56,130 nucleotides of DNA from a virus (Duplodnaviria > Caudoviricetes). The position numbers were made by a program, and so were the translations under genes. The stretch is taken from IMG/VR virus record IMGVR_UViG_3300029985_000050, positions 1-56,130 of that record; one strand, given 5' to 3'. This document shows, one piece after another, positions 1 to 17,417 of the stretch (its first letter is position 1; the number at the start of each line of letters is the position of its first letter). A model generated the notes under the pieces. It made no database searches, was not told the origin of the DNA, and worked only from the letters and a program-made list of their open reading frames with translations.

Positions 1-421
1 CGGGGCGGATGCTGACGACTTCGACAAATACTGCTCTCCGAACTTCAATGATTTTCGGAATAAAGCCAGTACGCTACTCCAGCTTTTAGAGCGCCAGCTC
101 GAGGTGGGGCTATTGTCTGGTTTTCTTGGAATTTTCCGCCCAAGGACTCAAAAATAAATACAACTCCAAAAACAGACCACCAAGACCTTGAAGAAACTCT
201 ATCACAGGGTCCTCACTTATTTTTCCGAGGTTAGCTCTTCGATCACGCAGATACGTTCAGACACCCCAGAGCATTCAGAATCCACAGCCACTGCCTATAC
301 GCAAGCCCGTGGATACTCCAAGAGTTGTAGATACCGTTTACAAACAAAAGAAAAAAGCAAGTGAATTGCAGATAGATAGCCCACTTATTCACAAACATGA
401 TTCAACCCCTCCTGCAACCCC

Positions 422-486
422 ACCTAACAATCCGCTTCCACCGGCGATTTGGCTTCGCCAAACGCGGTGAAGACGGAGCGTTAGGT
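422..486 (+). repeat. attC site 1 (65 bp)
   Basis: ACCTAAC (R'', RYYYAAC) at 422-428 and GTTAGGT (R', GTTRRRY) at 480-486, with an imperfect inverted repeat between. Confidence 0.85.
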
Positions 487-540
487 GGACGCCTACGCGG
501 CGCAGCGATGAAATGGAACAAACCATGAAAATAGCTGCAA

Positions 541-1431
541 ATGAATAACCGCAAAATAGCTGCAATTTTGATAGCTGCATTCGCATGGTCAGTACCCAAT
601 GCCTACGCACAAGAAAATAACCCCGAAAACAAACATGCAGATAGCGCCAGCCAATGGAAGGGTACTAGAGTCCATGTGCTTAAAGCAAACACGATTGTAC
701 CTCAAAAGCCTATCGCCAGGGTTGGCATACTCGCCGTTGACTCCCTCGTAATTAAGAATCCAATTTGCGTAGTCTTCAGTCCGACGATCATACCGCCTGT
801 CAAGATGGCCGATGAAGGCCCCAAGGCAGATAAGCAAAATTCCACCGCAAATGAGCCATTCTTTACAAAATGGAAAGATGTCATTGCCGCCCTCGGTATG
901 TTCGGTGCGCTGGGGGTTTCCCTCGGAGCCCTGTGTATCTCCATACGCGCTCTGCACTACACCGGCAACCTGTTCCGAGTCACACGAAACGGAGCTGCGT
1001 CGCAAATTAGGGAGAGCAAAAACCTTATTGGAATCACTTCGGATACTGCCAATAGGCAGCTTCGGGCTTACGTTGGAATCACCGATGTGCGAAGCTACGC
1101 CGACAAGGTGACGTTCGGCATTAGCAACTACGGGCAAACCCCGGCCCAAGATGTTCTGGTTTGGGCGAACTGTGGGGAAACTGCCTTGTCTACCGAAGAT
1201 CTCAAAACTTTTCGCGAGAATGATGTGTCTGCCGGAACTTTGTGGCCTGGAAATCTGACGCGAAGAGGTGTGGATCGGAATGGCCTCGAGAGCCCGTTTA
1301 CCTTTCGCGGTGTGCTCACCTACACCGATATTTTCAAAAAATCCCACACCACCACATTCCAATACTTCGTGATGGACATTCCTGGGATTCACAAATCCGG
1401 CCCCCACGACAAAGGAAACTCCTTCACATAG
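541..1431 (+). CDS. Cassette protein, paralog 1: signal peptide, TM helix, conserved C-terminal domain
   Basis: MNNRKIAAILIAAFAWS leader; hydrophobic VIAALGMFGALGVSLGALCISI; RQLRAYVGI..NYGQTPA..YTDIF..TTFQY..GNS motifs shared with the next three cassettes. Confidence 0.8.
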   Translation: MNNRKIAAILIAAFAWSVPNAYAQENNPENKHADSASQWKGTRVHVLKANTIVPQKPIARVGILAVDSLVIKNPICVVFSPTIIPPVKMADEGPKADKQNSTANEPFFTKWKDVIAALGMFGALGVSLGALCISIRALHYTGNLFRVTRNGAASQIRESKNLIGITSDTANRQLRAYVGITDVRSYADKVTFGISNYGQTPAQDVLVWANCGETALSTEDLKTFRENDVSAGTLWPGNLTRRGVDRNGLESPFTFRGVLTYTDIFKKSHTTTFQYFVMDIPGIHKSGPHDKGNSFT

Positions 1432-1449
1432 CAAAATGAACGAAATTAC

Positions 1450-1513
1450 ACCTAACAATGCCGTTCCTCCGGGATTCCGCTGCGCTCCACCCGGAGAACA
1501 GGCTCCGTTAGGT
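1450..1513 (+). repeat. attC site 2 (64 bp)
   Basis: ACCTAAC...GTTAGGT hairpin; same sequence as the site at 4295-4358. Confidence 0.85.
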
Positions 1514-1567
1514 GGACGCCTACGCGGCGCAGCGATTGATGAGATAGCTGCAAAATGAAAGCAACAA

Positions 1568-2344
1568 ATGAATAACCGCAAAATAGCTGCAATTTTGATA
1601 GCTGCATTTTCATTTGCAAACGTCTACGGTCAAAAAAGCGGCAATGCTGATGACAAAGCAAATGGCGCACCCAATTCCAAACAAGTAGAGAAAAAAGGAA
1701 ATGATTCGAGCGATTACCGCCGCCACCATGTAGGTCAAGCCCCACTGTCTATCGAAGCGGTCGATACCCCAGTAGTCAAGATCGTAACCACGACAAATAC
1801 CGAAAACTGCCAGGAGAAAGAAAGCAACTACCCCTACTGCCGAATAAAGCAGTGGTTCGTGGACAACAAAGACCTGCTCTCGGGAATCGCTACGATTATT
1901 GCGGCAATTGGCGTCTGCATCAGCATTTTTGTTGCCCGAAACACGCAGAGTGTGGGACGTAGGCAGCTGCGCGCATATCTTGGAATTTCCGAGTTTGGTC
2001 TCAGCACCTCCTGCGTGATGTTCACCATTAAGAACTACGGATTGACGCCGGCAAAGAAAGTGCGCATTTGGTGTGATTGTCCCGATACAGAAAGATGGCC
2101 TGCGCTGATAAAGTGGCTTCCGAAGCACGGTATTTCCGACGGAGATCTCATGTGGCCCGGGGATACCTTGGACCGGAAAAGTGTTCGAGTCGGATTGACC
2201 GAGGAATTTTTTGCGAACGGTAAAATCAGCTACACCGATGTCTTTGGGAACCGGCAAGTGACGACATTCCAGTACTCGATTCAGAAAGGCCCTAGTGGGA
2301 TTCTTCGATGCGTTGCTCACACCAAAGGCAATTCCGCCACATAG
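1568..2344 (+). CDS. Cassette protein, paralog 2
   Basis: Same N-terminus; TM LLSGIATIIAAIGVCISIFVA; RQLRAYLGI/NYGLTPA/YTDVFG/TTFQY/KGNSAT. Confidence 0.8.
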   Translation: MNNRKIAAILIAAFSFANVYGQKSGNADDKANGAPNSKQVEKKGNDSSDYRRHHVGQAPLSIEAVDTPVVKIVTTTNTENCQEKESNYPYCRIKQWFVDNKDLLSGIATIIAAIGVCISIFVARNTQSVGRRQLRAYLGISEFGLSTSCVMFTIKNYGLTPAKKVRIWCDCPDTERWPALIKWLPKHGISDGDLMWPGDTLDRKSVRVGLTEEFFANGKISYTDVFGNRQVTTFQYSIQKGPSGILRCVAHTKGNSAT

Positions 2345-2365
2345 CAAAACAAATGAACAAATCAC

Positions 2366-2430
2366 ACCTAACACGCGCCTTCCACCCGGATTCCGGCAAG
2401 CCGGAACCGTGTGAAGAGCGGGCGTTAGGT
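2366..2430 (+). repeat. attC site 3 (65 bp)
   Basis: ACCTAAC...GTTAGGT imperfect hairpin. Confidence 0.85.
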
Positions 2431-2487
2431 GGACGCCTACGCGGCGCAGCGATGAAATGAACAAAGCAACAATGGAAATAGCTGCAA

Positions 2488-3237
2488 ATGAATAACCGCA
2501 AAATAGCTGCAACTTTGATAGCTGCAATAGCGTCATCGGTACATTCCCAAGAGATAAGGGATGTTCACTATACTTCGCACATTACCGCACAGATAGCAGC
2601 AAAAGATACCGCAAACGATACCCAAACCCCCAATCATCCATCGAAGCGCGGAGATACGGCCAAGCGTCGCGAAGGAAATACCGATACAGGGGCCAAAAAT
2701 AATGATCCCAAGAAATCCGATGAACTTTTCCCAGCTGCAAATTTCCTCAAGGTGCTTGCTACAGACTATGGTAATGATATTCTGGCGCTCATCGCATTGG
2801 GGGCTCTCGCCGCTGGTATCTGGACTGCCTGGATTACTCGCACTAACGGAAATCGGCAACTTCGGGGCTACGTTGGTGTCGAGGATCTGATTTTTGCCGA
2901 TCCCCACACCACGCTCACAATTAAGAACTATGGGCAAACGCCCGCTAGTGATGTGAAAGTCTGGCTTGACTGGGGTTCTCCCTCGAAGGACTCTACTACG
3001 CTCAGAGGAGATCCTCAAGGGCAGGTATTTGAACGCGGAGTTATCAACCCTGCCAAAACCACTGCCTGTGCGCACCCGTGCAGAGGCCCAGTAACTGGAT
3101 TCTTTATCTATGGCACGATCAGCTACACCGACATTTTTGGCGAGAATCAAACAACTACTTTCCAATACATTGTCGGATACCCGCCCGGCAGGCACCCTAC
3201 CTGCACCGTCCATTCCGAAGGCAATTCCGCAACATGA
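2488..3237 (+). CDS. Cassette protein, paralog 3
   Basis: MNNRKIAATLIAAIAS; TM ILALIALGALAAGIWTAWI; RQLRGYVGV/NYGQTPA/YTDIFG/TTFQY/EGNSAT. Confidence 0.8.
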   Translation: MNNRKIAATLIAAIASSVHSQEIRDVHYTSHITAQIAAKDTANDTQTPNHPSKRGDTAKRREGNTDTGAKNNDPKKSDELFPAANFLKVLATDYGNDILALIALGALAAGIWTAWITRTNGNRQLRGYVGVEDLIFADPHTTLTIKNYGQTPASDVKVWLDWGSPSKDSTTLRGDPQGQVFERGVINPAKTTACAHPCRGPVTGFFIYGTISYTDIFGENQTTTFQYIVGYPPGRHPTCTVHSEGNSAT

Positions 3238-3258
3238 CAAAACAAGTGAACAAACCCC

Positions 3259-3323
3259 ACCTAACAATCCGCTTCCACCGACGATCCCACTTCGTGGGAC
3301 GCGGTGAAGACGGAGCGTTAGGT
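3259..3323 (+). repeat. attC site 4 (65 bp)
   Basis: Same arms as site 1 (CCTAACAATCCGCTTCCACCG...CGCGGTGAAGACGGAGCGTTAGG), different apical stem. Confidence 0.85.
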
Positions 3324-3403
3324 GGACCCTCCGGGCGGGATTTAGCTGCAATGAACGAAATAGCTGCAATGGGAATAGCTGCAATGAACGAAATGAACAA
3401 ATC

Positions 3404-4300
3404 GTGAAAATAGCGGCAATACTGCTCATCGCAATTTCTATTGCTGGTGCTGATTCAATACCACGCATTAAAGACTCCATCCCGAAAGACTCTGTACGCA
3501 ATCCCAAGATGGAAAGCGCTGTCCACAATCAGCCCGGCACTGATAAACACCCAGCGAAGGTGGATTCTGTGCCGCCCCGTCCCCGGGTAGTTCTCGGCAG
3601 TCCACAGCGCAGCGTAAATTCTACCACAAAACACGATTCCATTGAGGGCCAGAGTAACCAAGTAGCAAATAGCGGCAAAAAGATAGACTCTCCTTGGGCA
3701 CTCATTTGGGTAGCTGTTGCTGCCATCGCGGCTTTGATTCCGGCGCTCTTTGGCCCAGCTCCCATTATCGCTGCGTTCAGATGGCTCAACTCCCGAAATC
3801 GCCGAGGTATTCCCAAGGCTGGCGCTGCCGACCAACAACCGATTAGCACAGCCCCGCCGCAAATTATTACCGCTGCCACGCAGCGACTTCCCAACCCTAC
3901 CGCGCAACAACCGATAATTCAGATTTTGGACATTCTTTACAAAAGAAACAGTACAGTCCTCACGATCACAAACCAAGGTTTGGCCCCAGCTAGATCCGCT
4001 GAAGTCTGGGCATCCTGCGGAGAGGTCGCACAGACTACCGAGGTTCTCCAAAGAATTCCCGGGGAGCCTCGTCACCTCGGTGTAATCGCGCCAGCCAGTG
4101 TCTGCACGCTCAATGCACCCAAAGAAGAGGATCTTCACCTCCCCTACTTCGTGTACGGACGAGCCACCTACGTTGATTCTTTTGGGGTGCCCCATCTCGA
4201 TACTTTTCAATGCGTAATCACCGGCATCGAATCCGGATCTTGGAATTTCCATTCCGAAGGCAATTCCACCACACAGCAAAATGAACGAAATTCTACCTAA
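3404..4300 (+). CDS. Cassette protein, paralog 4 (more diverged; stop codon lies in the attC R'' box)
   Basis: KIAAILLIAISIAGA signal; TM WALIWVAVAAIAALIPALF; NQGLAPA/YVDSFG/DTFQ/EGNS; CAG where the paralogs have their stop. Confidence 0.75.
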   Translation: MKIAAILLIAISIAGADSIPRIKDSIPKDSVRNPKMESAVHNQPGTDKHPAKVDSVPPRPRVVLGSPQRSVNSTTKHDSIEGQSNQVANSGKKIDSPWALIWVAVAAIAALIPALFGPAPIIAAFRWLNSRNRRGIPKAGAADQQPISTAPPQIITAATQRLPNPTAQQPIIQILDILYKRNSTVLTITNQGLAPARSAEVWASCGEVAQTTEVLQRIPGEPRHLGVIAPASVCTLNAPKEEDLHLPYFVYGRATYVDSFGVPHLDTFQCVITGIESGSWNFHSEGNSTTQQNERNST

Positions 4301-4358
4301 CAATGCCGTTCCTCCGGGATTCCGCTGCGCTCCACCCGGAGAACAGGCTCCGTTAGGT
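4295..4358 (+). repeat. attC site 5 (64 bp)
   Basis: Same sequence as attC site 2. Confidence 0.85.
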
Positions 4359-4379
4359 GGACGCCTACGCGGCGCAGCG

Positions 4380-4574
4380 ATGAAATGGAACAAAGCAACA
4401 ATGGATTTTGAACTATTCCGGTATGAATCCTCAGCATTATTCCAATTACTCATGAAACTAGACAAGAAGAAGCCTGGGAAAGACGATTTGAATGTTTGGA
4501 GTTCCCCTGATTGGAACGCATTCAACGTCGCCGTATTGGAGTTATTGTGCATTGCTGAACGACAGCTCAGATGA
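4380..4574 (+). CDS. Small hypothetical cassette protein
   Basis: ORF directly after attC5 and its leader; start at 4380 or 4401. Confidence 0.4.
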   Translation: MKWNKATMDFELFRYESSALFQLLMKLDKKKPGKDDLNVWSSPDWNAFNVAVLELLCIAERQLR

Positions 4575-4659
4575 CATCCAGAACCTTCAGCAACCCCCAA
4601 AAACCTATTGCCGAACCTACCCACGGAAAGATTTGGAGCCACAAATCAACGATCCACAT
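4567..4659 (-). CDS. 30-aa hydrophobic peptide MWIVDLWLQIFPWVGSAIGFWGLLKVLDVI
   Basis: Translated by hand; preceded by a GGAGA RBS within the 39-bp repeat that also starts ORF 5012-5314. Confidence 0.45.
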   Translation of the reverse strand: MWIVDLWLQIFPWVGSAIGFWGLLKVLDVI

Positions 4660-4771
4660 TTAAAATCTCCCAGTTCGTCGGTGGAATGAACAAATCATGG
4701 TAATGGCTGCAAATGAATAACCACAAAATAGCTGCAATGAGCAGCCGAACAGCAAACAACAAAGGAACGAA

Positions 4772-5059
4772 ATGAGCCACTCCACTTTTCGCGAAGCAAT
4801 CCTTCCGTACCACATCCAAGCAAATTCGGACGGAACCCACACGGTGAGGAATCGCCAAAATGCGCCGATCTTCGAAAATATCCGATTTGAAAAATTGCCG
4901 CCGAAAACTGCCGCCAAAATTTCATTCAATGGGTCTGAAGACATCTCGAGCGTGTATCTGTACTGGGGAGGTGCTCCCCCGAAAACCAAGAAGCTCAAGG
5001 CGGAGTACTTTCTACGCCTTGCTCTGCTGTGCGATCTTTCGGTCACACACGAGGCGTAA
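4772..5059 (+). CDS. Hypothetical cassette protein (95 aa)
   Basis: AAGGA RBS; preceded by the cassette leader motif. Confidence 0.65.
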   Translation: MSHSTFREAILPYHIQANSDGTHTVRNRQNAPIFENIRFEKLPPKTAAKISFNGSEDISSVYLYWGGAPPKTKKLKAEYFLRLALLCDLSVTHEA

Positions 5060-5314
5060 TGCTTCCCAGAAGGAAATGGCTCCAGGAATGTCCTTCGCAT
5101 TTTCGCAAGCCAGCGCGATGGAGTCGGCGGGAACGTCGTGATTTTCCCACTCCTCCATCACACGCTTTTTGCCGAAGTGCTCCAGGAGAATGTCGGCATT
5201 CTTTGTTTTTCCGCAACCCTGCGGGCCCCAGATCAAGACGCCACGGACTTTCACATCCTTGGGATTCTTGTGGCCTGGCTTCTTCGGGGAATAGGTCTCA
5301 AAGGGACTTCCCAT
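5012..5314 (-). CDS. Small P-loop protein
   Basis: Walker A VLIWGPQGCGKT; GGAGA RBS. Confidence 0.65.
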   Translation of the reverse strand: MGSPFETYSPKKPGHKNPKDVKVRGVLIWGPQGCGKTKNADILLEHFGKKRVMEEWENHDVPADSIALACENAKDIPGAISFWEALRLVCDRKIAQQSKA

Positions 5315-5363
5315 TTCAAATCTCCCAGTTCGTCGGTGAAATGAACAAATGCAAGAAAATCAC

Positions 5364-5428
5364 ACCTAACGCCGCCTGTTCACGGTGGCCGGACGCAGTC
5401 CGGCCACCGTGAACAGGCGGCGTTAGGC
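5364..5428 (+). repeat. attC site 6, perfect palindrome, array terminus
   Basis: Arms 5365-5394 and 5398-5427 are exact reverse complements with a 3-nt loop; ACCTAAC...GTTAGGC. Confidence 0.8.
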
Positions 5429-5472
5429 TCAGAATATAGTTTCACAACTCTGAAAATCCAACAACTTTCTGC

Positions 5473-5703
5473 TCACCCCGCTCGAAGGGAGTTCGAGGTG
5501 GTGCTGGTGGCCCTGTCGGACTTCAAAACGGGCTTGGGAGGGCTCGCAACTTCGTCATCGGTCCTGAATCTGGCCCGCTCCACGACCTCGATATCGACTT
5601 TCGAAGGTGCGTCGGAGTTGATGTGCAGCGAAATGGAGCCGTGATGCATGGATTTTGCCCTTTTGACGATGAATTCTAGCGTTTCGTCGCTGATTTCGGC
5701 CAT
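5473..5703 (-). CDS. Hypothetical protein (76 aa)
   Basis: Abuts the portal stop; GGAG RBS. Confidence 0.6.
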   Translation of the reverse strand: MAEISDETLEFIVKRAKSMHHGSISLHINSDAPSKVDIEVVERARFRTDDEVASPPKPVLKSDRATSTTSNSLRAG

Positions 5704-7518
5704 TTACTCCCCGTTTTCCTTCAAGATGGTCTCCAGAACGCCCTTGAGGTCGCCTCCGTCGTGCCGGAACGCGAGCAACGCCACCAAAAGTGCATCCGGA
5801 TCGTCCTGGTGGTCCATCAAGGCCTTCCGGAGGGCGTCGATTCGGTCTCCGGTGATTCGATTCGACCTTCCGGGCTTGTGGACCGCGCTCGCGCCGGGCT
5901 GGGTGACGCCCTTCTTCTGCTTCCCGCCGATGCTCCCTGGTGTGGACCTGGTTTTCGTCGCTTCCTTGAGGTTCACGGAGGGTGCCGCGGCGGTTTTGGA
6001 GGCGGTGGCGTGCGGAGTTGTCTGCCCACCCTCGGTCGTTCCCGAGTTTCCATCTTCTTCGCCCTGCACCGTTCCTGGAAGGGGCTCGCCGTCGTTGTCC
6101 AGGCCGAGCTGGAGGAAGAACGGATTCGGCGGCGGGTTGTTCGCCTCCTCGGCGGTGAGGCTGGTGTTGTTCGAGTACCGCCCGCCGTACCGATTCCGGC
6201 GGATCTCCAGGGCGGACAAAATGCCATTGATGAAATCTAGACTGTCTGCTTGAGACGTTTTATAGCGCACGTCGGCCGCGTCCTTCTCATTCATGCTCCA
6301 GACTGGGCGGAACTTGATCGCGTACTCGTCCGGGTCGACGTCGGGAAGGGCGGAAGCCCCAATCCACATGGTCAGGGCCTCCACCGGGGCGCGCAGGTAG
6401 AGTCCCTGTAGGGCCTCGACGCTGTCGTAATACTGGCGGGCATCTCCCTCGCCCGTCGCATTCATCCCGGCAGCGCCGCGGCCAAACAGGAGCGAGACGG
6501 GGATGTTCACGTCCGCGCTCACCCGCATCATCATCCGATCCACCACGTCGGCCACGCCTGCGAACTCGAGCTTGTCGCGGGTGTAGTCCTCGTCCTCGGC
6601 CAGCATCACGCCGTGGAGGTAGTTCTTGGAGAGCTCGATGTTCGCCATGCGCTGTTCGATCGCGCCGTAGTCCTTGGCGAGAAGGAGCTGCTTCAGGTTC
6701 TTGATCTTGTACTTTCCGATCACCGACTCCTGCATCAGGTTCGAGATCGCGTTCCAGGAAAGCCCCATGTTCGACAAGCTGTCGAACGCAGCCTGGATGA
6801 CTCCAAACCCCCAGTAGCGGCGGTAGATGTCCATACCCGGGTAGACCCGATCGGGCGTTGGGTCACCACGCCACTCCACCACGCGTGTCCAGTGGATCTC
6901 GTAGGGCGGGCCGTAGACGCGCCGGACGGTGAAGTATGCGGGGAGATCGTAGCGCACTGACTCCGGGTCGGTGTCCAGGTCCGTAGGCATGATCCAGATC
7001 TCGGCGGCCGAGTGGGTGCGCAGGCCCAGGAGCTTCTGCGGGTTCTCGGGGTCGAACTTGAACGGCGCCGAGAGGGGCTTGCCGTCGTCCCAGAGTAGGA
7101 TGGTGAGCGCCCCGCCGAAGAGCCGGGTCCACTGCAGGGCCTCGCCGAAGTGCTTGCGTACCTTCAGCCGATCCATCTGCTTCACGATCTTCCCGTCCGG
7201 ATCGCCGTCGATGTCCCACCCGTTGCGGGTGGCGTCGTCGGCCAGCATCTTCACGATCCGCTTCCCCAGCCCGTCGCCGATGTAGAAGGCGGAGAGCTCG
7301 GGGAAGGTGAGCATGTACGGCGGGTTGACCTGGTTTGCCGTCGTGCGGTCCTTGCCGCGCACGCCGGACCCTGTCACGAAGTTCCGGAAGCTGTCGTTGT
7401 GGAGGTACACCTCGCGGAGAATCCCCTCGTTGACGCGCGCGCCCAACGAAGGGCGACGCTGCATCGCCTTTGCCGCCGCGGCTTGCTCCGCCTGGATGAC
7501 TTCGAGTTCGTTGGGCAC
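5704..7518 (-). CDS. Portal protein (DUF1073/HI1409-like) with low-complexity C-terminal tail
   Basis: Downstream of terL; motifs KRIVKMLADDATRNGW, RLFGGA, IHWTRV, IPVSLLFGRGAAGMNATGEGDARQYYD. Confidence 0.85.
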   Translation of the reverse strand: MPNELEVIQAEQAAAAKAMQRRPSLGARVNEGILREVYLHNDSFRNFVTGSGVRGKDRTTANQVNPPYMLTFPELSAFYIGDGLGKRIVKMLADDATRNGWDIDGDPDGKIVKQMDRLKVRKHFGEALQWTRLFGGALTILLWDDGKPLSAPFKFDPENPQKLLGLRTHSAAEIWIMPTDLDTDPESVRYDLPAYFTVRRVYGPPYEIHWTRVVEWRGDPTPDRVYPGMDIYRRYWGFGVIQAAFDSLSNMGLSWNAISNLMQESVIGKYKIKNLKQLLLAKDYGAIEQRMANIELSKNYLHGVMLAEDEDYTRDKLEFAGVADVVDRMMMRVSADVNIPVSLLFGRGAAGMNATGEGDARQYYDSVEALQGLYLRAPVEALTMWIGASALPDVDPDEYAIKFRPVWSMNEKDAADVRYKTSQADSLDFINGILSALEIRRNRYGGRYSNNTSLTAEEANNPPPNPFFLQLGLDNDGEPLPGTVQGEEDGNSGTTEGGQTTPHATASKTAAAPSVNLKEATKTRSTPGSIGGKQKKGVTQPGASAVHKPGRSNRITGDRIDALRKALMDHQDDPDALLVALLAFRHDGGDLKGVLETILKENGE

Positions 7519-7601
7519 GTGGAGTTACCTCTTCGAGGGACGCGTGACGGTCTTCTTGGTGGCGTTGGGCGGCTTCCCGAGGGGTTGGACGATGCCGGTG
7601 C

Positions 7602-7943
7602 TCACTGGCCGACCCAAGGGTACACCGTGCCGTTGATGCCGGTGATGACCAGCGCGCGATCGCCTTCCAGCGAGTACTCGTTGGGCCACACTACGGGAGT
7701 CCCGTTGACCGGGATGAGGGCGGTGTCCAAGTTCGCCGCGGCGCCGCTGGGGGTTTGGCTGACGAACTGGAGCGTACCCGTGTGCCCGGCCACCTCCACG
7801 GAAGCACTCAGTGTGATCGGCCTGTTCTTGTCCAGGTTCTGCTGGAGCAGGTACCAGGTGCCGTTGGTGGTGATCCCTTGTCCGAGGTCGGTGTCGACCA
7901 GAGGTCCGGGGTTTCCGTTCGTGAATTGCTGCCATCTGGCCAT
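7602..7943 (-). CDS. Hypothetical protein (113 aa)
   Basis: GAGGAG RBS; between terL and portal. Confidence 0.65.
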   Translation of the reverse strand: MARWQQFTNGNPGPLVDTDLGQGITTNGTWYLLQQNLDKNRPITLSASVEVAGHTGTLQFVSQTPSGAAANLDTALIPVNGTPVVWPNEYSLEGDRALVITGINGTVYPWVGQ

Positions 7944-7965
7944 TGTGTATCTCCTCAGTCGTTGG

Positions 7966-9276
7966 TCAAGAGTACATCACACGGGCGGTCTTCTCCTCCT
8001 CGGGGAAGAACACCTCGCGCAGGAGAGAGGCGGCGGAGTCCGGCACGTCGTCGGGCTCGGCGTCCTCGGTGTAGTCCGCGATCTGCATCATCGCCTCCGG
8101 GTCGGAGTCGTTCGCCCAGACGATCTGGTGCCAGTGGTGGCCCAGATAGTCGTGGATCTTCTCGTGCTTCTTCTGGCTCTCGTGGTAGGACTCGCATACG
8201 AGCCAACGCTCCTCCTCGAACGTCTCGAACACGCGGGCCAGCATGCCCTTGTCGGAATTCGTCTCCAGGTGGAGCTCGTGGCAACCGCGCCGCTCCAGCT
8301 CCACCATGATGGCGGGCTTGGCCTTCTCAGCCGAGCAGGCCCACTTCTTGACGAACAGCTGGAGGCGTCCGTCCTCCCGATTCGACCCGATGGTGAGGGC
8401 CGTGGTGTCTCGTCCCCCGTAGGCGGCGTCCAGCTGGGCGACCTTGCGGAAGTTGTTCTGCTGCCAGGGTCCCATCACGGGGTTCTGGAACTCCATGTCG
8501 TCGGCGTTGACGTGCTCGAGTTCGTAGTTGGCCGCCCACATGGCCTTGGTCATGGTGGCTTTTTTCAACTCGATCTCTTCGGGGGAAAGGATCCCGGTCG
8601 AGAAGACGTCGAACTTCATGGGGTTGATGCCCATCCCCTTCAGCATCTCCCAGGCATCTTCCTTGTGCCACGGGGTCCCGACCACACGGGCGAAGCGCCC
8701 TGGGTCCAAGATGTTCGTCAGGATTTCCTGCAGGTTCGCACGCGTGCTCTCCCGCTTGGCCCTGGAGTACCGGTCCTTCATCGAGATGGCGTCGTCCACG
8801 AGGATCGTGTCGTAGTGGGAGCCGACGGGGACGGTGTCGATACCGTAGGCGTCGAGGCTTCCTTCCTTCGTGATGGATCCCTTGAAGTTGAACGTGAGCC
8901 GCCCGTCGCGGTTCACGATCTTCTCCGGGTAGAACCCGTGGAAGGCGCGGAACAGCTCCTGGATCAACTCGTGCTCCATGTAGAGCCCGATGGTCTTCAG
9001 GGAGTCGTTGGCGACGGACCATGTCTCCCGCACCAGCGCGACGCGGTCGTCGGGGTGGAGGAGGAAGTTCCGGATGGAGCCGATTTCGGTGACGGCGGTC
9101 GTCTTGTACGCGCCACGATGGGCCTGGATCGCCGTGTGCGTCTGGGGGTCCCAGACGGACTTGATCCAGTCCGAGTGCATGGGGGTGAGCTTCTTCTTGC
9201 CGACCAGGTGGCCGATCAGGTGTGGGTATTTCCCAAGGCGGCGGAGCTGGTCAGGCGAGTAGAAGTCGCATCTCAA
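7966..9276 (-). CDS. terL: Terminase large subunit
   Basis: Walker A-like HRGAYKTT, Walker B ILVDD, VGTPWHKED, nuclease QLDAAYGGRD...PDDVPD. Confidence 0.88.
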   Translation of the reverse strand: MRCDFYSPDQLRRLGKYPHLIGHLVGKKKLTPMHSDWIKSVWDPQTHTAIQAHRGAYKTTAVTEIGSIRNFLLHPDDRVALVRETWSVANDSLKTIGLYMEHELIQELFRAFHGFYPEKIVNRDGRLTFNFKGSITKEGSLDAYGIDTVPVGSHYDTILVDDAISMKDRYSRAKRESTRANLQEILTNILDPGRFARVVGTPWHKEDAWEMLKGMGINPMKFDVFSTGILSPEEIELKKATMTKAMWAANYELEHVNADDMEFQNPVMGPWQQNNFRKVAQLDAAYGGRDTTALTIGSNREDGRLQLFVKKWACSAEKAKPAIMVELERRGCHELHLETNSDKGMLARVFETFEEERWLVCESYHESQKKHEKIHDYLGHHWHQIVWANDSDPEAMMQIADYTEDAEPDDVPDSAASLLREVFFPEEEKTARVMYS

Positions 9277-11595: not shown

Positions 11596-11861
11596 GTGCC
11601 GCGGTCAAAACCTACCTCCTAAAAATCCGTGCGCACGAGACACATTGCCCGATGATTCAGGTCGACGTCTACAACGGTCGCCGAAAAATCGCGGCAATGA
11701 CTCATCGTGACGGATGCCCTGATCGCGGGGTCACACTGTACCCAGCTAGAATCGGAAAATGGTTTCCGACCAAATCCGCGGCCCTGGAGTTCATCCGCGC
11801 GAACGAGGAGAACTACCTCTCGTGCATGGGCGGATCCGTTGTCGTGGAGTACGCCAAATGA
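11592..11861 (+). CDS. Hypothetical early protein
   Basis: ATGA overlap, RBS. Confidence 0.6.
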   Translation: MSAAVKTYLLKIRAHETHCPMIQVDVYNGRRKIAAMTHRDGCPDRGVTLYPARIGKWFPTKSAALEFIRANEENYLSCMGGSVVVEYAK

Positions 11862-12091
11862 TCGCGGCGCCGGTCACGATCTCCCCGGAAGGCCTTATCT
11901 TCCGTGCAGTCGAATCCTACTCGGTGCGGACCAGGGATCCGTCCCGAGGATGGATTAACCATGCCCCGCGTCTCAACGGATACGTGCGACACGGTGTACC
12001 GATCGCAAAAATCTACGCGGGCCCGATGGAGGCAAATTTGCGCGCGGCCTTTGCGCGAATCATCCCCTGGGATGATCTGGTTTCCCGATGA
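11858..12091 (+). CDS. Hypothetical early protein
   Basis: ATGA overlap, GGAG RBS. Confidence 0.5.
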   Translation: MIAAPVTISPEGLIFRAVESYSVRTRDPSRGWINHAPRLNGYVRHGVPIAKIYAGPMEANLRAAFARIIPWDDLVSR

Positions 12092-12218
12092 TCCCCGCGG
12101 CACCTTTGCCAGATATGGCGACCTGGATTTTCAAGCCCCGATTGTCCGCACGATTCTACGCGGCCGTTCGGGAAATCAACGCAACGACAAAAAACGACCT
12201 GAAAGAGGAGCACTGAAA

Positions 12219-12455
12219 ATGAAAACCAACGTAGGTGTGAAAACTCATCCGATCGGGAATATGGGCTACCTCCATTTTTGGTACGCAAACAACAAATCCC
12301 GCGGCACCAAAAATGTGACCGTCGTCTGGTCGCTGGAAAAATCTCGCACGCCGCTGGCCAGGCAACAGGTCGCCCAGGTTGCGACGACGAGGACGTGTGG
12401 GTGGCATGGAAATGTCAACCTGTCCAAAAAAGTGCTCGCCGAATTGGGTTTGTAG
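12219..12455 (+). CDS. Hypothetical early protein
   Basis: GAGGAG RBS. Confidence 0.6.
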   Translation: MKTNVGVKTHPIGNMGYLHFWYANNKSRGTKNVTVVWSLEKSRTPLARQQVAQVATTRTCGWHGNVNLSKKVLAELGL

Positions 12456-12599
12456 CCCGATTCCCGTCAATTTGAGGCACCTTCCCGGGCTTTTCAGAGC
12501 CCACCCCGTGTCCACCACGCCTAGCGACCGATTCTAGGGCGCCCCTAGGGCGATTGTGGGGCATTCGCACCAAACCACGAAAAACAGAAAGAACACCCC

Positions 12600-12854
12600 T
12601 TGAAAATCTCGAATCTTTTGCTTGTCGTTGCCCTCCTCTCCACCGTCGCCCTCGCCAAAAAGGACCTCCAAACGGTCGACGTGAACCATGCTCCGGCCGA
12701 CTCTTTGGCGGCGCACCTTCCGGGGGTTGGCCCCGCGATCGCACAACGGATCGTGGAGGGTCGGCCGTACAAAACCTGTCAAGATCTGTCCTCCACGGTT
12801 TCGGGGATCGGCACGAAGAAACTGGACAAGATCTGCCCTCTCCTCACGTTTTGA
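12600..12854 (+). CDS. ComEA-like helix-hairpin-helix DNA-binding protein with signal peptide
   Basis: Signal ..LLLVVALLSTVALA; VDVNHA...LPGVGPAIAQRIVEGRPY...VSGIGTKKLDKI double HhH. Confidence 0.85.
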   Translation: MKISNLLLVVALLSTVALAKKDLQTVDVNHAPADSLAAHLPGVGPAIAQRIVEGRPYKTCQDLSSTVSGIGTKKLDKICPLLTF

Positions 12855-12878
12855 GGGTGGTATAAGTTTCTTTGTTTG

Positions 12879-12905
12879 AGGGCGGATGGGCCGCCCTTTT
12901 CTTTT
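12879..12905 (+). terminator. Rho-independent terminator
   Basis: AGGGCGG-ATGGG-CCGCCCT followed by a T-rich tract. Confidence 0.75.
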
Positions 12906-13349
12906 GCCTGGAGTGGCAGGTATGGTGCGGGTTTGGCGGCGCTGGTGGGCGGATATTGGTTATGTGTTTTGTGAGGTGAACGGCCCGGCGGCCCTTTGGT
13001 GGTCTGGGAAATTGGTTGGGGGGTAGTTGGTTATCCCTAAATCTACTCTTTAGAGATCAGAGAGAAAAAGATAAGAGTTAAAAGGTAAAATAGAGAGGAG
13101 GAAAAACGGGGCCGTTTAACCGTCTAGACCACCTTGCACCTACAAACCCTTTGCCCATGCCGATTACCTGCCAAACAAACCTCCATTTTTATTATCTGTT
13201 ATCCCATACCTAAGGGCTTCGCCACTAACACCTATCGCACTCTCCACAAAATCCACCTAGTTTCGTGTTGACTCTTAAAGCCTTAAACACTATACTCCAC
13301 CTGCCAAACCTCGCCCCAGCGGGAGACGGCACTTAAACTCAACAGATAG

Positions 13350-14489
13350 GTGGTAGACAAAATGTGTCCACGAAAGAAAAAGGAACTCACAAACTCATTC
13401 CGGCCCGGGTTCAATCCGGAATTCGATAATGTTGATTCCAAACCTGCACAATTCCGGAAGATCCCTGAAACCGCGCGCGCGGTTCTTTTGTCCGTTGCGT
13501 CGACCCGTGGGGGTGCCTTTCGGTTCCTTTGGGGGTCTCGGAATTCCCCGGCGTGCGAGCTCTTTTCAGGGGGCGAAAGGTTCGACCCGGATCCCTTTTT
13601 CGATGCCCTTCCCCCGTTGAGCAACCCGGATGGGGTGGTGGACTATCCTACCCGCTGTCAGATTCTGCATGATCGTTTGGGGGTGCCGATTCGCGCGGAG
13701 CGTCGGACGTACTTAGGGGGCGCCCGCGGCCTGTCCAAGTACTTGGAACCCGTGGCCCTCGTGAACATCCTGGACAGGATCCAAGAGGGTGGTACGGTGG
13801 TCGACCCCCGGGAATTCGGGTTTTCCCTCGTGGGTGCCGGGGGCAAGGGTAGCCGTGGGGCCCTGCCCCTGCATATGGGGTTCATCACCCCCCATCTACG
13901 GAAACGAAACGCGGGAATCCGTGGGTTCACTTGTTCGGAATCCGTGGGGGTAGCTCTGGATCGCCTCCACGGCGCCGTCGTGCGAATGCGTGCGGATTTC
14001 AAGGATACGCGAATGCAAGGGGTGTACTCCTGGGAGGGCGCTTCCAAGGGGGCAAGGGTCCCGGAGGAATATCTCCTTGGTCTGAAACTATCCCCGGAGG
14101 TGTGGATCCGTCGTCGTATCGCCCGCCGATCGTCCGTCCTCTCCCTCTCCATCTTCGGCACCCGGCAATTGCAAAGCGGAAAATGGGAGGCGGTAGACCT
14201 CACGGCCCCCGCCGCGCTCCTGGCCACGGGAACGGACAACGCTGGGCCGGCATGGCGCCGTGCGGTCTACTTGGTGAACCGCGGCGATGGGTACGAGTGG
14301 GTCCTCCTCCACCCCGCCCACGACAACTACCCCACGGAGGTTTCAGGCGTCCCCGGCGTTGAGTACGAGGGGTCGCCCGCCCGGTCGCTGGTCTCCTCCC
14401 TCCGGACGTTGTGGGACGACGGCGACAAGGTGAAAATTCGATGGATCCGGGACGACAAGCCGTTGACGGACGCCGGAGAGGTGCGGTAA
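13350..14489 (+). CDS. Hypothetical protein (379 aa)
   Basis: Long ORF co-oriented with neighbours; no motif recognised. Confidence 0.6.
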   Translation: MVDKMCPRKKKELTNSFRPGFNPEFDNVDSKPAQFRKIPETARAVLLSVASTRGGAFRFLWGSRNSPACELFSGGERFDPDPFFDALPPLSNPDGVVDYPTRCQILHDRLGVPIRAERRTYLGGARGLSKYLEPVALVNILDRIQEGGTVVDPREFGFSLVGAGGKGSRGALPLHMGFITPHLRKRNAGIRGFTCSESVGVALDRLHGAVVRMRADFKDTRMQGVYSWEGASKGARVPEEYLLGLKLSPEVWIRRRIARRSSVLSLSIFGTRQLQSGKWEAVDLTAPAALLATGTDNAGPAWRRAVYLVNRGDGYEWVLLHPAHDNYPTEVSGVPGVEYEGSPARSLVSSLRTLWDDGDKVKIRWIRDDKPLTDAGEVR

Positions 14490-14532
14490 CTCCACCAGCT
14501 GAAAACTTTTTTGCCTTTCTTCACCCCACCTC

Positions 14533-14561
14533 TTGACTTCCTAACATAGATTGCTTAGATT
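14533..14561 (+). promoter_or_regulatory. Sigma70-type promoter
   Basis: TTGACT-17 bp-TAGATT. Confidence 0.7.
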
Positions 14562-14617
14562 ACTAGACATGAGGCCAGGCGATCCCGCCCACGGCCCGAA
14601 ACAATCGGAGCGAAACA

Positions 14618-14968
14618 ATGTCGACCAAACCCACAAAAGCAGAAGTTGAAGAGCAGAAGGAACTGCTAAAAAGCTGGTTCCCGAAGGGCTCCACCGTATA
14701 CACTGTTCTTCGCCACGTTTCGGCGTCCGGCATGCAGCGGGAAATCGGGGTTGTCGCGATCCTTCCCCAGGATCCCGGAAACCCCGGATCGGGCGCCGAC
14801 CTATGCCACCCGAACTACGCTGTTTCTACCGTCCTTGGTTGGGCGCGCTCCAAAGGCGACGGCGTCAAGGTCTGTGGGTGCGGGATGGATATGGGGTTCC
14901 ACCTCGTGCACGAGCTCGCCGGCGTGCTCTACGGTAACGGATATGACCTTAAGCAACGGTGGATCTGA
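14618..14968 (+). CDS. Phage hypothetical protein
   Basis: GGAG RBS; VLRHVSASGMQR and GCGMDMGFHLV motifs. Confidence 0.75.
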   Translation: MSTKPTKAEVEEQKELLKSWFPKGSTVYTVLRHVSASGMQREIGVVAILPQDPGNPGSGADLCHPNYAVSTVLGWARSKGDGVKVCGCGMDMGFHLVHELAGVLYGNGYDLKQRWI

Positions 14969-15009
14969 ACATGCGACACTTCATCTTCACCATTTCCAAG
15001 GTTTGAACC

Positions 15010-15231
15010 ATGAAAACCAAAGCGCCCACCCTGGCCACCGTGTACGGCACCTCTCCCGACCTCCCCATGATGAAATCCTTGATCGGGGACCGCTTCCTTT
15101 GTGGAACGAAAATCGAGCTCATCGCCTCCCCGTGCGGGACCTTCCACGAGGTCCACAATTCCAAGGGCCGGCTAAATATCGTGGTGGTTCGCAAGGGCGC
15201 GCGGTTCGCGTTCGGGACGGTGGCCCGATGA
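15010..15231 (+). CDS. Hypothetical protein
   Basis: Operon position. Confidence 0.55.
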   Translation: MKTKAPTLATVYGTSPDLPMMKSLIGDRFLCGTKIELIASPCGTFHEVHNSKGRLNIVVVRKGARFAFGTVAR

Positions 15232-15680
15232 GCGCCGAAAAGGACATCCTCCACGAGGTCGGCGACTACTTCGCGATCCGGTGCGGGAAGACCGTCGAGG
15301 TTCGGCACTCCCTCCCCGTCGGCGCGCTGGTGGACTCCACCTTTCCTTTCGACAAGGGCGGCATTTCCTTGGCCGTCGCCCGGGTGGACTATCTGGCCGG
15401 AACTCCCCGCGCCCAGGCTCCCCGGCGCGATCCGCACGCCTCCCCCATGAAAAACGAGGAGTGCGAGCGGATCGCCCAGGCGGCGGCGCGGGTGCCGCGG
15501 GCCGATGGAAAGCCCATGGCATCCCAGTACATTTACGGCGCGTTGGAGGCCGCGGGGCTCCTTGTGCAGGTGGTCAAGAAAGGGAACGGCGCGGAGTACT
15601 CCCGCCTGAAGTCGTCAATCAAACGGTGGGAAATCCAGGCGGTGGCCGATCGCGCCCTTTGGCTTTTCGAGCACCCATAG
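15228..15680 (+). CDS. Hypothetical protein
   Basis: ATGA overlap. Confidence 0.6.
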   Translation: MSAEKDILHEVGDYFAIRCGKTVEVRHSLPVGALVDSTFPFDKGGISLAVARVDYLAGTPRAQAPRRDPHASPMKNEECERIAQAAARVPRADGKPMASQYIYGALEAAGLLVQVVKKGNGAEYSRLKSSIKRWEIQAVADRALWLFEHP

Positions 15681-15791
15681 CGCCCCACGGGGACCGGGGC
15701 GGGTTCGATTCCAGCCCGGGCGCTTTCCCGGCCTCTCCACGGTGGAGGTGGTCGGGGTCCTTGAGAAACCAGACAATCGGAGGAGAAGACA

Positions 15792-16223
15792 ATGGAAACA
15801 GAAATCAAAATCGACGCGGCCCGTAGGCTCTACACCTGCCCCGTCGCGGGCGGGTGGTCCTCGTTCGGGTTCGATTACGCCGACCGCGACAACCGCGCGA
15901 TCCGGGAAGAGCTGAACCTACCGGCGCCGGTGGCCGTGGTCGGGACGGTGGAGGCCCTGCAGGAACTCCGCGACGCCCAGGAGGCCGTGCGCCTTTCCGG
16001 TCGCCGCCTGGAATGCGGACTCCATCCGAAGTTGCGCGGGCTCGAGGGTTCGCGCGTGGAGGCCACCCTTTACGGGGAGCGCGTCCGGTTTCAGGTCGGG
16101 AAGTCTACCGGCTGGATTCCTTGCCACCTGCAGATTCACAATTCCAGGTCCACCGGCGGCGGTTCGATTCGTCCGGACGCGGACCTCGGCGACGTGGTGG
16201 TGATTCGTAGGGGGCGGGCATGA
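15792..16223 (+). CDS. Phage hypothetical protein
   Basis: GGAGGAG RBS; FQVGKSTGWIPCHL..SRSTGG motif. Confidence 0.75.
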   Translation: METEIKIDAARRLYTCPVAGGWSSFGFDYADRDNRAIREELNLPAPVAVVGTVEALQELRDAQEAVRLSGRRLECGLHPKLRGLEGSRVEATLYGERVRFQVGKSTGWIPCHLQIHNSRSTGGGSIRPDADLGDVVVIRRGRA

Positions 16224-16405
16224 ACGCCGCGCTCGAGGGAAAAGAGCTCAACCGCGCCGCGTTGATCGCCGCCGCGCCGGACCTTTTGGAGGCGCTGGAA
16301 AAGCTGGTGGTCGCGGTGGAGGATGAACTCCCGGTGGGAGGGTCCGACGAAACCCGCGCCGCGCGTGCCGCCCTCGCAAAGGCCTGCGTGGAGGTGGCCC
16401 GATGA
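16220..16405 (+). CDS. Small phage protein (LIAAAPDLLEAL family)
   Basis: Widespread phage motif LIAAAPDLLEALE. Confidence 0.75.
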   Translation: MNAALEGKELNRAALIAAAPDLLEALEKLVVAVEDELPVGGSDETRAARAALAKACVEVAR

Positions 16406-16686
16406 GCGCCGAATTGAAGGCCTGCCGGGAGTACGGCGAAAGGGTGGCGGCCGCGGCGCTTGCCCACATGCCCGCGGCGATTTTCGGAGCCCTTCGGGAT
16501 CCCGACCGCGCGGACTCGATCCGGCGTATGGTCTACTACATCGAGGTGAATCCAGAGGCGATCCCAGGCGAACGCCACGAGCGGCGGGATTTCCTCTCGT
16601 TCCTGGTTCGAGCATACAACTACATGGGGCGCGAAACGAAGGCCGAACAGGAGGAGTCCGCGGCGCGCGCGGAGGCCAACGGATGA
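16402..16686 (+). CDS. Hypothetical protein
   Basis: GGAGG RBS, ATGA overlap. Confidence 0.65.
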   Translation: MSAELKACREYGERVAAAALAHMPAAIFGALRDPDRADSIRRMVYYIEVNPEAIPGERHERRDFLSFLVRAYNYMGRETKAEQEESAARAEANG

Positions 16687-16747
16687 GCGCCGCGCGCTGG
16701 ACTCCGGAGGCGATTTTGGCAAAGCTCGAGTCGGAAGGGGTGAAACT

Positions 16748-16996
16748 GTGAACCGCGAAACCGTCCTCAAGGAATACGCCGCGAACCTGTTCGAATCCCT
16801 CCCGGAGGATTTCAAGGGTCAAGCCCAGGGGATCCACCGGGAAATCGGTAACGGGGTGCGCCTAGCCGCGTTCTTCCGCGGGGGCGACCAGATCGCCCGC
16901 CGCGCGGCGCTCCGGTCGACCGTCCTGGACGTCCGCGCACTCCGCACGGGCGCCCGCCTGGCCAAAATGTTCGACCTCGTGGAGGTGGCCCGATGA
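16748..16996 (+). CDS. Hypothetical protein
   Basis: Translationally coupled operon gene. Confidence 0.6.
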   Translation: MNRETVLKEYAANLFESLPEDFKGQAQGIHREIGNGVRLAAFFRGGDQIARRAALRSTVLDVRALRTGARLAKMFDLVEVAR

Positions 16997-17217
16997 TCCC
17001 CGACCCGCTGCACATCAACGGGCAATCCTGGCACCACCGCGCCGAAGGGGTGGACGTCGAGGCACTGGACCACTACGCCGCGTGGGAGGCCACGCTCTTG
17101 TCCGGCGGCACCCTGGTGTACCGCCTGGTGGTGGACCAGTTCGCCGGTTTCTGGACCACCAGCGGCCCGACACCGGGCCTCGTGCTCATCGCCGTCATTC
17201 CGGAGGTGGTCCGATGA
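16993..17217 (+). CDS. Hypothetical protein
   Basis: GGAGG RBS, ATGA overlap. Confidence 0.6.
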   Translation: MIPDPLHINGQSWHHRAEGVDVEALDHYAAWEATLLSGGTLVYRLVVDQFAGFWTTSGPTPGLVLIAVIPEVVR

Positions 17218-17417
17218 TCCACGCATTTTCCGAAATCAAATTTCCCAACGGTCACACGACCCGCCGCGTATTCCGCTGGCAGGGGGTGTCCGCCGACTTG
17301 ATCGCCCTGATCGGGCACGCGATCGGGAACGGGGGTGCCGTGACGGTGCGCCCGGCCACGCCCGAAGAGGTGGCGGTGAACGATCTTCGCCGCAACGGGT
17401 CGGAGGTGGTCGGATGA
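17214..17417 (+). CDS. Hypothetical protein
   Basis: GGAGG RBS, ATGA overlap. Confidence 0.6.
   Translation: MIHAFSEIKFPNGHTTRRVFRWQGVSADLIALIGHAIGNGGAVTVRPATPEEVAVNDLRRNGSEVVG

Follow-up and report, generated by a model that had tools for sequence, protein, structure and literature searches.

A probable integrase-less cassette array with four paralogous membrane-protein genes in the head-gene region of an uncultivated peat phage

Integron attC sites are imperfect palindromes, roughly 57-141 nt in length, in which the folded bottom strand leaves some bases extrahelical and structure is better conserved than sequence. In the arrays of sedentary chromosomal integrons, such sites vary little in length and core, and the co-oriented cassettes lack promoters and have a GC content below that of the backbone; families repeated within one array are attributed to integrons of this kind. 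Clusters of attC sites lacking an integron integrase (CALINs) were described in phages by Qi, Rajabal, Ghaly, Tetu and Gillings in 2023; they reported integron components in 21 of 10,705 isolate phage genomes, including 17 CALINs, recognized by at least two attC sites within 3 kb, and IntI1 recombined five of the six phage attC sites tested (PMC9892861). Here, an array of attC sites is described at positions 1-5428 of the IMG/VR virus record IMGVR_UViG_3300029985_000050, a linear record of an uncultivated peat phage that was analysed over its whole length (positions 1-56,130, hereafter the window). The array carries four consecutive cassettes with genes of one membrane-protein family and is very probably a phage-borne CALIN with mobile cassettes.

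As far as the accessible part of the 2023 paper goes, the array resembles the CALINs described there in its co-oriented attC sites with open reading frames (ORFs) between them, in its carriage by an integrase-less phage (virulent ones being included among theirs) and in the idea, common to both, of a host IntI acting in trans; unlike them, it belongs to an uncultivated peat phage and has six assembled sites, compared with their minimum of two (PMC9892861). The features that it adds are the location inside the head-gene module, the recurrence of this position in a phage with a 71% identical portal gene, an order that varies among co-occurring variants and the presence of four paralogous cassettes. 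With the arrays of sedentary chromosomal integrons it shares sites of homogeneous length and core, co-oriented cassettes without promoters and a GC content below that of the backbone; unlike such an integron, the array has no intI, attI or cassette promoter (Pc), is carried by a phage and is bounded by a half R' box and by a backbone attC, named attC0 here, which lies beside the DUF2213 gene.

The sites were found with a pattern scan for RYYYAAC...GTTRRRY combined with arm complementarity, which yielded six sites (attC1 to attC6, Table 1), all on the plus strand, co-oriented with the ORFs, 64-65 nt long and spaced by 893-1069 nt. The same scan found no attC-like site at window positions 5500-56130 and none in 20 shuffles of positions 1-5500. 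The R'' core RYYYAAC and the R' core GTTRRRY are present in all six, and CCTAAC and CGTTAGG are invariant in nine aligned sites of 59-67 nt from the window and related contigs. When folded as single-stranded DNA, the bottom strands of five of the six form imperfect hairpins (z -3.2 to -7.3) with a terminal stem of 9-10 bp, an unpaired position and bulged bases, and an alignment of eight sites shows compensatory change on both sides in 13 of 27 consensus pairs. The sites therefore carry the defining features of integron attC sites, and the reading of the units as integron-type cassettes, made in a preliminary description of this DNA from its letters, agrees with the finding that each unit is bounded by such a site with both cores. 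The same description had noted that the sites recur independently of the ORFs, and this holds as well: positions 1451-1512 in site 2 and 4296-4357 in site 5 are identical over 62 nt (0.01 chance matches expected) within surroundings of 125 nt that are 94% alike, and the arms of site 1 (420-443/465-488) equal those of site 4 (3257-3280/3302-3325) around differing loops. Rfam, searched at E<=1, had nothing relevant to the sites; the only match, weak and due to chance, was of the hairpin to a miRNA family. Among viral contigs, an exact 24-nt attC-plus-leader pattern was found in L028 only, and a looser attC pattern in eight loci, six of them new, with an attC-like site in L090 only of the six.

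Evidence for mobility comes from the order of the cassettes, which differs from that of the window in the related contigs L007, L083/L035 and L027 and also within the DNA run X3, so that the earlier suggestion of a shufflable set is borne out. Cassettes D and E recur in L007 and in L035/L083, which are relatives 85-86% alike in the DUF2213 protease, as well as in the window; cassette D, 95.8% identical, stands directly behind the backbone site attC0 in L007, and cassette E takes this place in L035/L083. Behind the left half and loop of attC1 stands leader type a in the window but type b in L007, and left halves and right leaders combine independently across the window, L007 and L083. At the other end of the array, L027 has the portal-side backbone joined to a left half of attC4 type in place of attC6, and its junction and that of the window share only GCGTTAGG, 8 nt around G/TTAGG; as GCGTTAGG is too short, homologous recombination is not expected there, and the position is the canonical G/TT. 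In keeping with a joining of units at the G/TT of the R' box, the first base of the contig L082, which ends exactly at attC0, is the G of that site. In run X3, one contig spans the D/E junction and another loose end puts the attC0 loop directly before cassette E, so both arrangements coexist in one run. Contigs of the DNA runs X1 and X3 break at every attC/leader repeat, and in run X15 three of four joints have short sides (24-69 nt) at 90% likeness, which are not relied on here. An exact copy of attC3 occupies the same place downstream of the portal in L090, a phage whose portal gene is only about 71% identical in nucleotide sequence, indicating that the docking position is old in this phage group and that its contents are exchanged. 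The same cassettes in different orders and with different neighbours, in related contigs and in a single run, are the kind of evidence on which a case for ongoing exchange in phages, as opposed to a fossil, would have to rest.

Regarding its base composition, the array has about 50% GC and the remainder of the phage about 63%; along the window, the GC fraction is 0.49-0.52 up to about position 5000 and 0.57-0.69 after it, and the GC content of third codon positions (GC3) is 0.48-0.55 in the cassette genes versus 0.82-0.91 in phage core genes. The composition of the array is foreign to the phage backbone. The array is situated inside the phage genome, with the portal on one side and the DUF2213 head protease on the other; its setting is not that of a bacterial integron. 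On the portal side, a terminase-like ORF, the portal (PF06381, E 7.8e-65) and a 76-aa ORF on the minus strand read directly into the last attC, and the flanking backbone ORFs have a GC3 of 0.86-0.91. On the other side, L007 carries the major capsid protein (PF09950), the cement protein (PF22758) and the DUF2213 head protease/scaffold, then attC0 and then its copy of cassette D. The two sides are connected by L082, a 17,647-bp viral record with the DUF2213 gene at 187-1701, leaving 186 nt between the contig end and the gene, since its positions 11659-17647 equal window positions 56130-50142 at 99.77%. This overlap with the far end of the window, together with the DUF2213 gene beside attC0, places the array between portal and head protease and closes the genome as the window, 11,658 nt of L082 and an unassembled remainder of the array, that is, about 68 kb plus that remainder. 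The portal-side junction recurs in L028 (99.5% over 6,779 nt), L029 (98.9%) and L030, all from other records, and 14 peat-metagenome DNA runs each contain 94% or more of the words sampled from window positions 1-6500, which makes a chimera or a bacterial flank very unlikely.

Concerning the integrase, neither the integron integrase model TIGR02249 nor the tyrosine recombinase family PF00589 had a match in the window and five related records, including that of L082, the controls behaving as expected. The six sites lie close together with no integrase nearby, and the intI, attI and Pc of a complete integron were not found in the assembled DNA; attC sites without an integrase make this a CALIN and not a complete integron. 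Among the other phage genes of the window are PolA (a family-A DNA polymerase), an SNF2 helicase, a DUF3854/DUF5906 primase-helicase and a PD-(D/E)XK nuclease, as well as an ATP-dependent ligase, a patatin-like protein and Baseplate_J. Since the phage has replication genes of its own and no integrase was found in 67.8 kb, it is probably non-integrating. No isolate phage exceeded 30% identity to the portal in a tblastn search, which therefore offers no clue to the host.

The mechanism proposed here is that cassettes would enter, leave and change order by attC x attC recombination, with the integron integrase supplied in trans by the host, and that they would probably originate in a chromosomal integron of the host, one whose attC sites are homogeneous. 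Relevant to the way in which the first site of the phage could arise is a study reporting that IntI can insert cassettes outside att sites (10.1101/2022.09.11.507474). A possible glimpse of a bacterial integron source is given by L006, a 1-kb metagenome contig in which the leader recurs, at 150-300, with a gene 1 start that is 88% identical. Its GTTAGG is preceded not by an attC hairpin but by two direct repeats of about 25 nt, which lie in GC-richer DNA and look attI-like, and the next gene reads into the leader of the family gene with no attC between them.

The four consecutive and co-oriented ORFs between the sites indeed encode one protein family, as the preliminary description had claimed: in a four-protein alignment, the second to fourth are 40, 35 and 26% identical to the first, and pairwise identities range over 26-40%. 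The signal-like N-terminus KIAA.L is seen in all of them (K5, I6, A7, A8 and L10 invariant), followed by the low-complexity region, which is a disordered and variable stretch in each protein, and by one internal transmembrane (TM) segment per protein as judged from hydropathy. Most of the C-terminal motifs that had been listed are confirmed, namely N196, G198, P201 and A202, W208, and Y261, D263 and F265, as are T272, F273 and Q274 of TFQ and H289, G292, N293 and S294 of H..GNS, invariant in the four; QLR.Y.G, however, is found in only three, ORF 4 having AQQPII at its position. An AlphaFold2 (AF2) model of protein 1, made with a 40-sequence alignment, has a helix at residues 3-17, a disordered region at 22-105, a continuous 66-residue helix at 108-173 that includes the TM segment and a beta-sandwich at 178-296, with a predicted local distance difference test (pLDDT) value above 95 over 175-296.

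The topology is predicted from the number of K and R residues: in 30 of 40 members of the family, the 15 aa after the TM segment contain more of them than the stretch before it, with totals of 125 and 63, respectively; this bias suggests that the variable part is exported and the sandwich cytoplasmic. An N-terminal hydrophobic segment is present in 31 of 36 long forms. Each protein is thus predicted to have a cleavable signal peptide, an exported disordered segment, one TM segment running into a long helix, and a cytoplasmic Ig-like beta-sandwich with a conserved C-terminal tail GN(S/T)xT. The earlier picture of a variable outer part with a constant inner domain stands in its predicted topology but not in its constancy, as the domain is only 26-42% identical between paralogs and is itself swapped. 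Structural comparisons of the AF2 model bring matches of low similarity: in the PDB, Foldseek lists SadB (4c47, E 7.9e-4), an archaeal pilin, FlaF/FlaG and TRAP-beta; the ESM Atlas gives only 'hypothetical protein' clusters, with PF28748 carried by one structural neighbour; and the best viral model match is L7TMN9 of BFVD, a 'Transmembrane protein' of Rhizobium phage RHEph01, with E 1.6e-6 over 222 columns and a TM-score of only 0.36. At the sequence level, no PDB sequence scored below E 0.069 in a profile search, Pfam gave only sub-threshold chance matches for the four proteins, and the C-terminal domains of the relatives P0011 and P0043 match phrog_9607, of unknown function, weakly (E 6.7e-5 and 3.6e-4), unlike the four window proteins, which have no PHROG match.

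The family extends far beyond the array. In a profile search, a threshold of E<=1e-3 admits 10,983 cluster representatives and one of E<=1e-10 still 2,265; a word-indexed search gave 11 relatives only. A 40-member alignment shows the common plan of an N-terminal hydrophobic segment, a variable region, a TM segment and a C-terminal domain with the motifs QLRAYVG, (I/L)xNxGxTPA, GxIxYxDxFG..RxTxF and a C-terminal GNxxT, and its columns N, G, A, G, D, G and N are invariant in all 40, the four window proteins among them. Pfam and NCBIfam families were each matched by at most one of these members. The 43 genome loci of relatives belong mainly to Alphaproteobacteria, besides Rhodanobacter, Methylibium, Terriglobia and others. 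A pattern scan of these and 18 metagenome loci (531,562 nt) found no attC site, so that, by the refuting condition set in the preliminary description, the linkage of homologs to cassettes fails for the wider family in all 61 loci and holds for the KIAA-type subfamily, of which 14 of 14 proteins fall into one 18-row subtree of a quick tree (approximate likelihood-ratio test 90). Judged from these sequences, the close KIAA-type subfamily appears to be the only cassette-borne part of the family. In phage and plasmid collections, a family scan of viral contigs gave 30 pattern matches and no relatives, and tblastn of P0011 found none in 50,697 phage records and none in plasmids.

In the genome loci, a cluster of IS1595/ISXO2 transposases is present in 16 of 43, and in the 10 loci listed in detail its distance from the family gene is at most about 1.3 kb. 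A DUF6471 gene lies directly upstream of the family gene in 7 of the 43, and another protein, about 140 aa long, recurs in 8. Among L039-L081 (e.g., L039:4766-6570, L045:5081-6735 and L059:1252-3368), family genes adjoin IS1595/ISXO2 transposases, some with overlaps of stop and start, and the DUF6471 gene often stands between the two. Two tandem family genes are found in L065, at 863-1765 and 2047-2913.

Besides the shuffling of whole cassettes, comparison of the sequences shows that the relatives are mosaics in which N- and C-terminal modules have been exchanged. Protein 1 is 86-100% identical to P0004 at residues 1-180 and 26-42% at 181-296; protein 4 is 100% identical to P0006 at 181-298 and 36-50% at 61-150; and P0007 has other breakpoints. 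The C-terminal module is swapped independently of the N-terminal part and both halves vary, for which reason the 'constant inner domain' is not constant. A natural truncated form is also seen, as P0010 (186 aa) has the N-terminal part of the protein-4 type and the TM segment without the domain, its frame continuing into an attC.

With respect to their role, the proteins would be accessory inner-membrane proteins that are made in the infected cell and act at the envelope, where competing phages or other incoming DNA would most plausibly be excluded, several paralogs widening the range. The preliminary description had put forward superinfection exclusion, receptor masking or phage sensing as candidate roles, for none of which PADLOC, Pfam or NCBIfam gave a match. 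Known superinfection-exclusion membrane proteins of phages, such as Imm and Sp of T4, SieA of P22 and gp15 of HK97, are small and accessory, sit in the inner membrane and have their genes outside the core gene order. The window proteins are likewise small, accessory and predicted to be in the inner membrane, but unlike them in that no sequence or fold relationship was found. Superinfection exclusion is thus a tentative leading guess, held with low confidence, and is ranked ahead of passenger cargo and of an oligomeric membrane effector. Another study reports that cassettes of chromosomal integrons often encode anti-phage defence (10.1101/2024.07.02.601686). The account as a whole, that is, a phage CALIN with cassettes moved in trans that carry an accessory membrane-protein family, is the best explanation available and on balance a probable one. 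A further-reaching version, in which non-integrating phages keep a permanent docking attC in the head module and host IntI shuffles a two-module repertoire deciding which phages or mobile elements are excluded, is speculative and rather doubtful; if true, it would be an integron-driven diversity system serving a virus.

Integron components in phages have been reported recently and rarely (PMC9892861). The array also ties a large unnamed membrane-protein family to three kinds of mobile DNA, namely cassettes, a phage and IS1595 neighbourhoods, and makes it a reasonable candidate for functional screening for exclusion, defence or an envelope phenotype.

A number of observations weigh against the proposed account and in part speak for other explanations. 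The attC scan is a crude pattern scan and not a covariance model, the exact 24-nt attC-plus-leader pattern had no match in genome contigs, and attC6 is a perfect hairpin with 30-nt arms in both the window and L028, which is atypical for attC; its counterparts in L029:4099-4165 and L030:5089-5155 are imperfect, and the perfect palindrome could be due to hairpin-templated conversion or to an assembly effect. No tyrosine recombinase was found in the 67.8 kb assembled, the unassembled stretch of the array between L082 and window position 1 could hold an integrase, and no bacterial integron with this attC type and no host were identified. The CheckV completeness of the window record, 58%, fits poorly with a closure at about 68 kb. 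Regarding expression, the cassette genes are antisense to the flanking late genes, and a sigma-70 scan gave two sites, both on the minus strand, versus a shuffle mean of 4.5, so that no sigma-70-like promoter was found on the plus strand; by eye, no Shine-Dalgarno sequence is obvious ahead of the cassette genes. Contigs from two RNA libraries cover parts of gene 1 (696-943, 715-962 and 1260-1530), gene 3 (3027-3238) and the portal, but they show neither transcription nor strand, gaps in their cover and their depth carry no information on expression, and DNA carry-over is possible. As to the role, PADLOC-DB 2.0 gave no family at E<=0.1 for the four window and four wider-family proteins, none of the four window proteins matches PHROGs, Pfam or NCBIfam, and the Foldseek check that had been proposed for the C-terminal domain returned only generic Ig-like sandwiches on a helix, with TM-scores of at most 0.5 in the PDB.

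The alternative that survives best concerns the proteins and not the array, and regards them as passenger cargo of little or no consequence to the phage. Their function would then be a bacterial or mobile-element one, for instance that of an addiction-type module that travels with IS1595 elements or of a regulator anchored in the membrane. The position of the wider family in bacterial chromosomes (43 loci) beside IS1595 points to mobile cargo in general rather than to a phage-specific role, as do the neighbouring DUF6471 genes, and both the GC3 of the cassette genes, which has not drifted towards that of the phage, and the missing promoter are in keeping with it. Phage genomes, however, are under size constraint, and four paralogs are kept in a row in this one, with intact ORFs and a confidently folded domain; moreover, cassettes D and E recur among the relatives, and the array position recurs in the phage that is 71% alike in the portal. 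Passenger cargo is therefore considered unlikely, though still worth serious attention. If the four paralogs proved useless to the phage, the array would still illustrate cleanly, in nature, how integron cassettes are carried from host to host by phages.

A second alternative takes the hairpins as repeats of the phage's own, such as terminators or gene-boundary stem-loops, with the genes shuffled by homologous recombination and without any integrase; stem-loop-mediated shuffling is known in T4-type phages. The lack of an integrase would fit, the repeats reach into the conserved leader, 35-60 nt past the attC core, and the internal junctions have 13-25 nt common to both sides, so that the crossover point cannot be placed there and homologous recombination could yield the same reshuffling; only the L027 junction is tight. 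In one contig, a 655-nt unit has also been lost between two 39-nt repeats of the last segment, and attC6 is a perfect hairpin. Against this stand the canonical cores in all nine aligned sites, their bulged bases and 13 compensatory pairs, the mere 8 nt shared at the L027 junction, the foreign composition and the attC3-identical site of the 71%-alike phage. Phage attC sites have, in addition, been shown to be recombined by IntI (PMC9892861). Homologous shuffling of this kind is accordingly regarded as improbable, and integrase-mediated cassette exchange is preferred.

For the proteins, a third alternative is that of oligomeric membrane effectors, namely pores, abortive-infection factors or lysis-timing factors, in which the TM segment and helix would form stalk bundles and the sandwich would gate or sense. 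The long helix of the AF2 model, the best PDB match to SadB, a trimeric coiled-coil lipoprotein, and the presence of cytoplasmic domains of Kir channels among the Foldseek matches are consistent with this; a three-copy complex prediction of residues 105-296 gave a median of 0.39, compared with a mark of 0.42, and counts neither for nor against it. The structural matches, however, are all weak, PADLOC has none and no sequence feature of a known holin or pore-former was found, making this a quite improbable role.

The remaining alternative, that the low-GC segment is bacterial chromosome (an integron beside a prophage end) or an assembly chimera, could appeal to the sharp GC step from 0.49-0.52 to 0.57-0.65 near position 5400, to a contig that ends inside the array, to the breaks at every repeat and to the CheckV value, and it is very improbable given that phage structural genes flank the array on both sides (the portal in the window; DUF2213, cement and capsid proteins in L007 and L082), that L082 overlaps the far end of the window, that the junction recurs in L028, L029 and L030 and in 14 runs and that prophage ends do not normally lie between portal and head protease.

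The features of the array, now taken as a probable phage CALIN, and of the adjoining backbone are collected in Table 1.

Table 1. Coordinates of the cassette array and of the phage backbone beside it in the window.
Feature	Position	Strand	Remarks
Cassette A	1-480	+	truncated by contig end; partial ORF 2-157
attC1	422-486	+	inferred crossover G480/T481; bottom strand -26 kcal/mol, z -7.3, bulged bases
Cassette B	481-1507	+	conserved leader
Family gene 1	541-1431	+	296 aa; cassette B
attC2	1450-1513	+	cassette B
Cassette C	1508-2424	+	leader
Family gene 2	1568-2344	+	258 aa; cassette C
attC3	2366-2430	+	cassette C
Cassette D	2425-3317	+	leader
Family gene 3	2488-3237	+	249 aa; cassette D
attC4	3259-3323	+	cassette D
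Cassette E	3318-4352	+	other leader type
Family gene 4	3404-4300	+	298 aa; GTG start; cassette E
attC5	4295-4358	+	cassette E
Composite last segment	4353-5422	mixed	three ORFs, family remnant and 39-nt repeats
ORF	4401-4574	+	unrelated to family; last segment
Remnant of family 5' end	4693-4767		last segment
ORF	4772-5059	+	last segment
P-loop ORF	5012-5314	-	phrog_14685, E 8e-12; last segment
attC6	5364-5428	+	last site; crossover G5422/T5423
Phage backbone beside array	5423-9276	-	L028 and L029 colinear over the junction
76-aa ORF	5473-5703	-	phage backbone
Portal	5704-7518	-	PF06381
ORF	7602-7943	-	phage backbone
Terminase-like ORF	7966-9276	-	label from position and sequence; without Pfam match

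The ends of the cassettes show some further regularities. The 5' leader behind each attC is conserved at the DNA level, also ahead of the unrelated ORF at 4401-4574, of which the partial ORF in cassette A is a paralog (BLASTP, 41% identity over 29 aa, E 2e-6). The leaders are A-rich, and the motif ATAGCTGCAA occurs about three times at each cassette 5' end; its occurrences at 513-581, 1548-1608, 2460-2528, 3345-3435 and 4685-4745 fall partly within the signal-peptide codons (KIAA), and the beginning of gene 1 is overlapped by a mini-ORF, MKIAANE (525-548). Part of the N-terminal conservation may reflect a feature at the DNA or RNA level. At the opposite end, gene 4 reaches eight codons into attC5, because CAG (in 4257-4300) replaces the TAG stop of gene 1, and it terminates at the TAA inside CCTAAC.

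The last segment is composite and includes the remnant of a family 5' end, which the preliminary description had missed. Its 39-nt direct repeats at 4657-4695 and 5312-5350 are 95% alike, and one contig of run X15 lacks positions 4657-5311, that is, the 655-nt unit between them. Read on the minus strand, the repeats comprise a leader, a ribosome site of GGGAG type and the ATG of minus-strand ORFs, and a leader of this type also precedes other small ORFs in L030 and L090. These repeat units may represent another class of module, one that points against the direction of the cassettes.

Beside the array, L027:5355-6483, in a contig that is 97% identical to the window from the portal leftwards, has the small ORF behind the portal interrupted by a 39-aa ribbon-helix-helix-like ORF and a 277-aa HNH_3 endonuclease (PF13392, E 1.1e-8), with the original C-terminal end fused behind; this insert looks like a homing-endonuclease insertion. 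Far from the array, the patatin-like phospholipase of the phage is encoded on the minus strand at 43054-44118 (PF01734, E 4.5e-7).

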